Program-made: the position numbers and the translations under genes
Shown here: positions 37,043 through 37,171 of the stretch, in pieces
Layout: the number at the start of each line of letters is the position of its first letter
Position numbering within the stretch: position 1 is the first letter of the stretch
Sequence record: NC_024125.2
Strand: one strand, 5' to 3'
Length of the DNA stretch: 64,000 nt
From: Escherichia phage vB_EcoM_112
Notes under the pieces: model-generated
Database searches by the model: none
Told to the model about the DNA's origin: nothing
Seen by the model: only the letters and a program-made list of their open reading frames with translations

Positions 37043-37171
37043 AGTTTTGTGAAAAAATTTTAAAAAATTTTGGGGAATTCTAGGGCAGGGAGGGGCAATT
37101 AAAAGATAGGATAATATATTATAAAGGATAGAAACTAAATGATGTCTAGAGAGGCCCGGAAAGGCCTAGAT

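Follow-up and report, generated by a model that had tools for sequence, protein, structure and literature searches.

An untranslated terminator-to-promoter junction ahead of gene e.8 in a T4-like phage: a probable extended PeSL-type arrangement

The window examined in this study, namely a 64-kb stretch of DNA from Escherichia phage vB_EcoM_112 (NC_024125.2), is a Tequatrovirus (T4-like) genome sequence, in which the minus strand encodes every gene from about 34 to 41 kb, including those in the neighbourhood of the spacer at 37043-37171 (Table 1). Read along this strand, a gene for a 157-aa protein is followed by terminator B, the spacer, an early promoter, e.8, and then e.7. When a 1.1-kb query around the spacer was searched, 539 phage records were matched, 390 of which were aligned over at least 80% of the query length; in the literature that could be consulted, we found no mention of the interval 37043-37171. 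Both a promoter-like site and a terminator-like site are indeed present on the two sides of the spacer, as proposed in a preceding reading of the sequence alone (hereafter, the sequence-only reading), and in fPS-2 and SA20RB the two corresponding sites are annotated on this same strand, the promoter as a “T4 early promoter”. Because both of these sites are on the minus strand, nonetheless, the spacer precedes the promoter (it covers about -37 to -165) and follows the terminator, and its earlier placement downstream of the early promoter needs to be reversed.

Table 1. Features of the window around the spacer (positions are those of the 64-kb window)
Feature	Position	Strand	Remarks
tRNA cluster	39434-38075	minus	
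segB-like GIY-YIG endonuclease gene	38821-38156	minus	
rnaD and rnaC homologues	about 38070-37760	minus	close to the spacer, just upstream of it
36-nt direct repeat	37727-37762 and 37170-37205		terminator and tail; 94% identity
Terminator A	37759-37736	minus	
Late promoter	37729-37722	minus	TATAAATA; upstream of the 157-aa cassette gene
Cassette gene	37210-37683	minus	157 aa; phrog_2280 (unknown function); N-terminus MKSYTQFLNEA
Terminator B	37202-37179	minus	stem AGCCCCGACC-AAAA-GGTTGGGGCT; T-run 37178-37175
Spacer	37043-37171		between terminator B and the e.8 early promoter
Hairpin	37152-37167		AGGCCTTTCCGGGCCT on minus, AGGCCCGGAAAGGCCT on plus; AGGCC/GGCCT, 5-bp stem
AT-rich middle block	37101-37151		minus-strand sequence CTCTAGACATCATTTAGTTTCTATCCTTTATAATATATTATCCTATCTTTTAA; best conserved part of the spacer
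G-run tract	37070-37100		G-runs on plus, C-rich on the transcribed minus strand
Quadruplex motif	37072-37095	plus	GGGGAATTCTAGGGCAGGGAGGGG; four G3+ runs, N1-7 loops
UP element of the e.8 promoter	37043-37069	minus	A/T tracts AAAATTTTTTAAAATTTTTTCAC; about -37 to -63
e.8 early promoter	37041-37013	minus	
-35 of the e.8 promoter	37041-37036	minus	TTTACA; T4-type early promoter
-10 of the e.8 promoter	37018-37013	minus	TACTAT preceded by TG; 17-nt spacing from -35
e.8	36969-36706	minus	87 aa; phrog_2678; served by the early promoter; followed by e.7

Terminator B, which ends the upstream gene for an internal-protein-like product, has a stem of ten pairs (seven of them G-C) followed by TTTTT. Together with its tail, this terminator constitutes one copy of a 36-nt direct repeat, and the two copies bracket a 557-bp cassette (37206-37726) holding the 157-aa gene. 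T4 has no such cassette; instead, a single copy of the repeat is found immediately after rnaC. The repeat and the cassette illustrate cleanly how a gene can be inserted at the junction formed by a terminator. Also, we noticed that the window encodes a second 157-aa protein (32761-32288, minus strand) with the N-terminus MKTYQEFITEA. This N-terminus and that of the cassette protein resemble the capsid-targeting sequence of T4 internal proteins, and the two 157-aa proteins (37683-37210 and 32761-32288) may be injected internal proteins.

Further upstream, the rnaC and rnaD homologues precede the cassette. In T4, the rnaC and rnaD RNAs (species 1 and 2) are structured, tRNA-like, and processed from the tRNA transcript. 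ARAGORN called a 94-nt “tRNA-Lys(ttt)” at 37809-37902 on the minus strand, which falls within the homologue of T4 rnaC (species 1 RNA), and the rnaC/rnaD region matched no Rfam entry; rnaC and rnaD seem to be stable RNAs without a curated family. In the tRNA cluster, furthermore, the tRNA called Met(cat) at 38863-38934 (minus strand) occupies the position of T4 tRNA-Ile and is probably a lysidine-modified Ile tRNA but not a Met tRNA.

On the other side of the spacer, the e.8 promoter scores 25 bits on an early-promoter matrix, and a Shine-Dalgarno sequence, GGAG, is placed 6 nt ahead of the e.8 ATG at 36969. The A/T tracts at 37043-37069 share 83-90% identity with the regions upstream of -35 at the early promoters at 22027, 40744, 41073, and 9128. 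UP elements are located at -40 to -60 (PMC2988021), and the present A/T tracts, which are at about -40 to -63 and have homologues at other early promoters of the genome, are like the UP elements of the T4 “uber” early promoters (Hinton 2010, PMC2988021), although this likeness covers only the promoter-proximal 25-30 nt of the interval. The first 25-30 nt of what had been described as an anonymous spacer are, therefore, an A/T-tract element common to other early promoters. Among the relatives, the A/T tracts differ by indels of 10-12 nt, and one tract is absent in several of them. The promoter itself is missing in one phage; BYEP01 (OR757453.1) has a deletion of the e.8 promoter (about 75 nt, beginning in the A/T tracts and reaching the start of the leader; about 1165-1200 of the locus), and the spacer is kept, so that e.8 would be transcribed there by read-through only or be silent. 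As a separate observation, a 34-nt exact repeat at 36989-37022, which covers the -10 of the e.8 promoter and the first transcribed bases, recurs about 15 kb apart at 21980-22013, and its 21-nt core is present in several copies per genome in metagenome-derived T4-like contigs.

The spacer itself was described in the sequence-only reading as G-rich and unlike the surrounding AT-rich sequence. The two strings quoted there are found where they were placed to within one base (TGGGGAATTCTAGGGCAGGGAGGGGCAATT at 37071-37100 and AGGCCCGGAAAGGCCT at 37152-37167). In terms of base content, nonetheless, the spacer does not stand out: its G+C content is 0.28-0.37 versus 0.348 for the whole window, and that of the flanks is the same. 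What is unusual is the asymmetry between the strands, and only in this sense (G far in excess of C on the plus strand) is the spacer G-rich. Indeed, the plus strand has 27 G versus 4 C per 100 nt, which is in the top 0.1% of windows; the GC skew is +0.6 to +0.7, and the purine fraction of 0.70 is at the 99.9th percentile. This skew is kept in all 24 distinct relatives (on the minus strand, 22-26 C and 4-7 G in the 81-nt core), which are too closely related for the kept asymmetry to prove selection. The statement that the spacer encodes nothing obvious holds: no ORF of at least 25 aa lies inside it, the sole one touching it (37146-37316, minus strand, GTG start) extending through the terminator.

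It had also been suggested that the spacer may be a small RNA. We examined this possibility from the sides of transcription, folding, and coding. A sigma-70 scan of 37043-37171 gave no site. With a matrix built from ten early promoters of the window, on which real promoters score 25-36 bits, the best site in the spacer reached -0.9, a score equalled or exceeded at 288 positions of the window. Reading of the sequence revealed no MotA box (TGCTT) in the spacer, and the late promoter TATAAATA occurs neither in the spacer nor within reach on the plus strand. As a candidate for a second, decayed early promoter, ATTTAG-N14-aataTATTAT in the middle block was considered and rejected; it scores only -4.9 bits versus 25-36 for real promoters. 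There is no minus-strand terminator between the spacer and the e.8 promoter, and the plus-strand hairpins have no T-run. The fold of the spacer is no better than that of shuffled sequences (z = -0.33 and -0.47 for the two strands); a z of -2.6 is obtained when the terminator is included, which is due to the terminator itself. An RNAalifold consensus has a weak invariant hairpin (-5.2 kcal/mol) without compensatory pairs. In a search of 35.5-41 kb against Rfam with E values up to 10, only tRNAs were hit, the spacer giving noise at E of about 3, and ARAGORN likewise detected nothing tRNA-like there. While the spacer shares its neighbourhood with rnaC and rnaD, being just downstream of them, it has no structure of their kind and is situated beyond the terminator.

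A short plus-strand ORF (37139-37204, 21 aa, MMSREARKGLDTKKPQPFGRG) has its ATG after AAGGA and is open also in T4, which would be in favour of a coding role; the nine variable columns in this ORF, however, split 4:3:2 among the first, second, and third codon positions, which is not a coding pattern, and the segment for its C-terminus crosses the terminator, which is itself replaced by an unrelated one in the fPS-65-type phages. With a promoter on neither strand, no structure signal, and no Rfam match, a small RNA gene or this ORF as the product of the spacer is extremely improbable. The proposed small RNA thus has no promoter, correctly oriented terminator, stable fold, covariation, or Rfam family to its name.

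We then turned to the distribution of the part of the spacer beyond the UP element, a block of about 96 nt (about 37073-37168). With its 90-nt core, 50,697 phage records were searched, and the block was found at 535 places in 533 records; it is hence a single-copy sequence. In 514 records, or about 96% of those matching, the block is covered to at least 80% with an identity of 90-100%, and T4 is among them. None of the 533 records has the block in another context; it was found only at the same locus of Tequatrovirus-like phages, and no repeat of its core was found elsewhere in the 64-kb window. Scans of IMG/VR and metagenomes added few further T4-like loci. A mobile element was rejected in view of the single-copy status, and the features of a miniature mobile element are absent: the block resides at one place per genome, and its ends share only an inverted match of 6-7 nt (TCTAGG/CCTAGA).

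The block is always retained with the e.8 promoter side, and its join to a variable upstream part is always at TTTTTGGTATCT. Upstream of this join, rnaC is found in T4 and the 157-aa gene in the window, AR1, G10400, and fPS-2; in fPS-65, RB14, and others, a different gene is found together with an unrelated terminator (CCCTATC..GATAGGG). In Dhakavirus (IME341, IME281, and relatives), the block is absent, and a stem-loop terminator directly abuts the homologous e.8 promoter. In a global alignment of the window with Dhakavirus, terminator B with its tail corresponds to the Dhakavirus stem-loop with its own; a single gap of about 96 nt comes next, and pairing is restored at the UP element. The block is accordingly specific to Tequatrovirus and is either an insertion in Tequatrovirus or a deletion in Dhakavirus. 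Comparison with related phages, which the sequence-only reading had recommended, has revealed the same block in about 514 of 533 records and none in Dhakavirus. In the equivalent gap of Dhakavirus IME341, furthermore, the last 50 nt or so of a 192-aa ORF, intact in two sister phages, are left between two terminators; gene relics thus do accumulate at this junction. The idea that the spacer is the scar of a lost element remains plausible in the light of the clean block of about 96 nt relative to Dhakavirus and the gene relic in IME341, but the donor sequence was not found.

To describe conservation within the spacer, 28 distinct Tequatrovirus sequences were aligned, and the codon positions of e.8 were used as a yardstick; the mean pairwise identity is 0.987, 0.995, and 0.902 at codon positions 1, 2, and 3, respectively. 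The hairpin (0.898, for a segment taken as 37153-37168 and hence one base off) and the C/G-run tract (0.896) are indistinguishable from third-codon sites. The G/C columns of both vary as much as G/C third-codon positions; in the G-run tract, a fraction of 0.38 is invariant versus 0.44 at the latter. As for base pairing, 8 of 24 distinct relatives have lost the middle pair of the hairpin, and none shows a compensating change. The hairpin is not an intrinsic terminator by the usual definition, given that a T-run after the stem is absent on both strands, and the terminator scan did not report it. By eye, we had also regarded the hairpin as a decayed terminator loop of the Dhakavirus type (TCTAGGCC(C/T)TTCCG..GGCCT); the computed alignment pairs that loop with terminator B, and 12% of shuffled sequences scored as high in a local alignment, and this idea was abandoned.

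The middle block (here measured over 37101-37152) is different. Its identity is 0.95-0.97, and 81% of its columns are invariant versus 55% at third-codon positions (p = 0.003), the excess being in the A/T columns (0.87 versus 0.62 invariant, p = 0.009). Such conservation hints at some constraint, although the evidence is modest, coming as it does from closely related and non-independent genomes. One-base insertions are found in the middle block of two relatives, and the natural variant EPIMAM01 lacks 13 nt of it. Every sub-element of the locus is, in fact, absent somewhere: the quadruplex motif, the hairpin pair, 13 nt of the middle block, an A/T tract, and the promoter.

These features bear on several functions that might be assigned to the block. 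The AT-rich middle block (37101-37151) could be a site for a host or phage DNA-binding protein modulating the e.8 promoter from about -95 to -146, given that no other sub-region exceeds third-codon sites in conservation and that it adjoins phased A/T tracts. No recognisable motif was found in it, however, and nothing similar exists upstream of the other early promoters in the window; given also the modest statistics from closely related genomes, the insertions in two relatives, and the 13-nt deletion in EPIMAM01, we regard a protein site as very unlikely. The G-run tract, on the other hand, is the only place in the 64 kb with a canonical quadruplex motif (four runs, G3+N1-7), where first-order Markov shuffles have 0.035 motifs per window and at least one motif in 2% of cases, and the motif is intact in 19 of the 28 relatives. 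A quadruplex on the plus (template) strand might then have a regulatory role, or form a roadblock, ahead of the e.8 promoter. The motif is, however, missing in the other 9 of 28, including T4, whose allele of the tract lacks one G-run; the G-run columns vary as much as G/C third-codon positions, and the absence of a plus-strand promoter nearby makes it unlikely that a G-rich RNA is made. A regulatory quadruplex is, in our opinion, highly improbable.

The main alternative is a Rho-dependent role. The RNA of about 100 nt produced by read-through of terminator B would load Rho, and the polymerase would be released before the e.8 promoter; i.e., the spacer would be a fail-safe terminator or insulator. 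Rho-dependent sites are known in the prereplicative units of T4, and intergenic rut sites are unstructured and sometimes C-rich (PMC2988021). Like the rut sites in E. coli and T4 early units, the spacer is untranslated and unstructured over about 80-100 nt, and C greatly outnumbers G on its transcribed strand: per 100 nt, the minus-strand RNA contains 27 C and 4 G, a composition in the top 0.1% of windows and retained in all relatives (22-26 C and 4-7 G in the 81-nt core), folds weakly (-12.1 kcal/mol for 129 nt, z = -0.33), and has no ORF along the tract. This likeness, however, comes from composition alone, and the tract differs from rut sites in being directly behind an efficient intrinsic terminator and in having C positions that are conserved no better than neutral ones. 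Also, BYEP01 keeps the spacer without the e.8 promoter, where any expression of e.8 would need read-through across the tract, and the Dhakavirus relatives manage without the block. We consequently consider Rho-dependent termination in the spacer to be unlikely. The more elaborate version, in which the block of about 96 nt, its AT-rich middle included, is a dedicated insulator with a C-rich transcript loading Rho, perhaps together with a template-strand G-quadruplex, and protects the e.8 promoter from occlusion by polymerases escaping the tRNA/late-gene terminator, appears quite unlikely to us.

The reading that we prefer, with a probability of roughly 0.65, is that the interval is a product-less terminator-to-promoter junction of an extended PeSL type, composed of a promoter-proximal UP element and a lineage-specific leftover of about 96 nt that would serve at most as a buffer. 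PeSL (promoter-early stem-loop) cassettes of a terminator and a promoter have been described in T4-like phages (Arbiol et al. 2010, PMC2839356; Comeau et al. 2014, PMC4122927). Like those, the present locus has an early promoter of the form TTTACW-N17-TAYWAT that is preceded by AT-rich sequence and followed by a Shine-Dalgarno sequence and a start codon, has a stem-loop terminator upstream of the promoter, and belongs to a hyperplastic region where genes are gained and lost exactly at the stem-loop, as is evident from the cassette between the 36-nt repeats here and from the other gene and terminator elsewhere. The Dhakavirus e.8 loci are canonical PeSLs with the stem-loop abutting the promoter, and so is a near-identical copy of the e.8 promoter located downstream of gene 32. 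In the window, by contrast, the stem-loop is about 130 nt before -35 (127-142 nt in the relatives), with the single-copy block of about 96 nt in between; strict membership of the PeSL class therefore fails on one defining feature, namely, a stem-loop that abuts the promoter.

On this reading, 37043-37171 is the untranslated stretch that separates the upstream unit's intrinsic terminator from the e.8 early promoter. The upstream unit is the tRNA/rnaC operon in T4 and, here, the inserted and late-expressed gene for an internal-protein-like product. The promoter-side part (37043-37069) is the A/T-tract UP element, and the block of about 96 nt, in which a decaying hairpin is combined with AT-rich sequence and with a tract that is pyrimidine/C-rich on the transcribed strand, would have been inherited with the e.8 promoter side as a leftover of terminator/promoter-mediated (PeSL-type) cassette shuffling in the hyperplastic region. 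Any role left to it would be that of a passive buffer between two transcription units. Several points are against a leftover: the middle block surpasses third-codon positions in conservation, all 24 distinct relatives keep a strand asymmetry that is extreme for the genome, and about 96% of matching records still have the block although indels are frequent in its surroundings. Also, the search of 50,697 phage records with the 90-nt core gave neither a donor nor an ancestral sequence. Orientation, composition, conservation pattern, single-copy status, and the lack of RNA-gene or coding signals are thus observed here, and the origin as a recombination leftover and the buffer role are inferred.

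These results remove a candidate small RNA of the phage and correct the orientation of the earlier finding. They also make the locus a worked example of T4-type cassette exchange at terminator/promoter junctions, for which the evidence is the 36-nt repeat around the internal-protein-like gene, the alternative cassettes at the same join, and the gene relic in Dhakavirus. The role of Rho in T4 early transcription is still unsettled (PMC2988021), furthermore, and an untranslated tract with C over G behind an intrinsic terminator would be a candidate case for tandem intrinsic and Rho-dependent termination in T4.

Some further observations were made on the spacer. In IME537 (NC_054921.1), the e.8 CDS is annotated with 459 nt (307-765 of the locus), extending upstream over the promoter as far as the spacer. 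This extension is apparently an artefact of annotation; short “hypothetical proteins” are also annotated on the spacer in a few further records. Three CTAG sites (37080, 37146, and 37166) are also found within a 90-nt stretch inside the spacer, this tetranucleotide being about two-fold under-represented across the window (106 observed versus 205 expected), and EcoRI, XbaI, and StuI sites are likewise clustered there.
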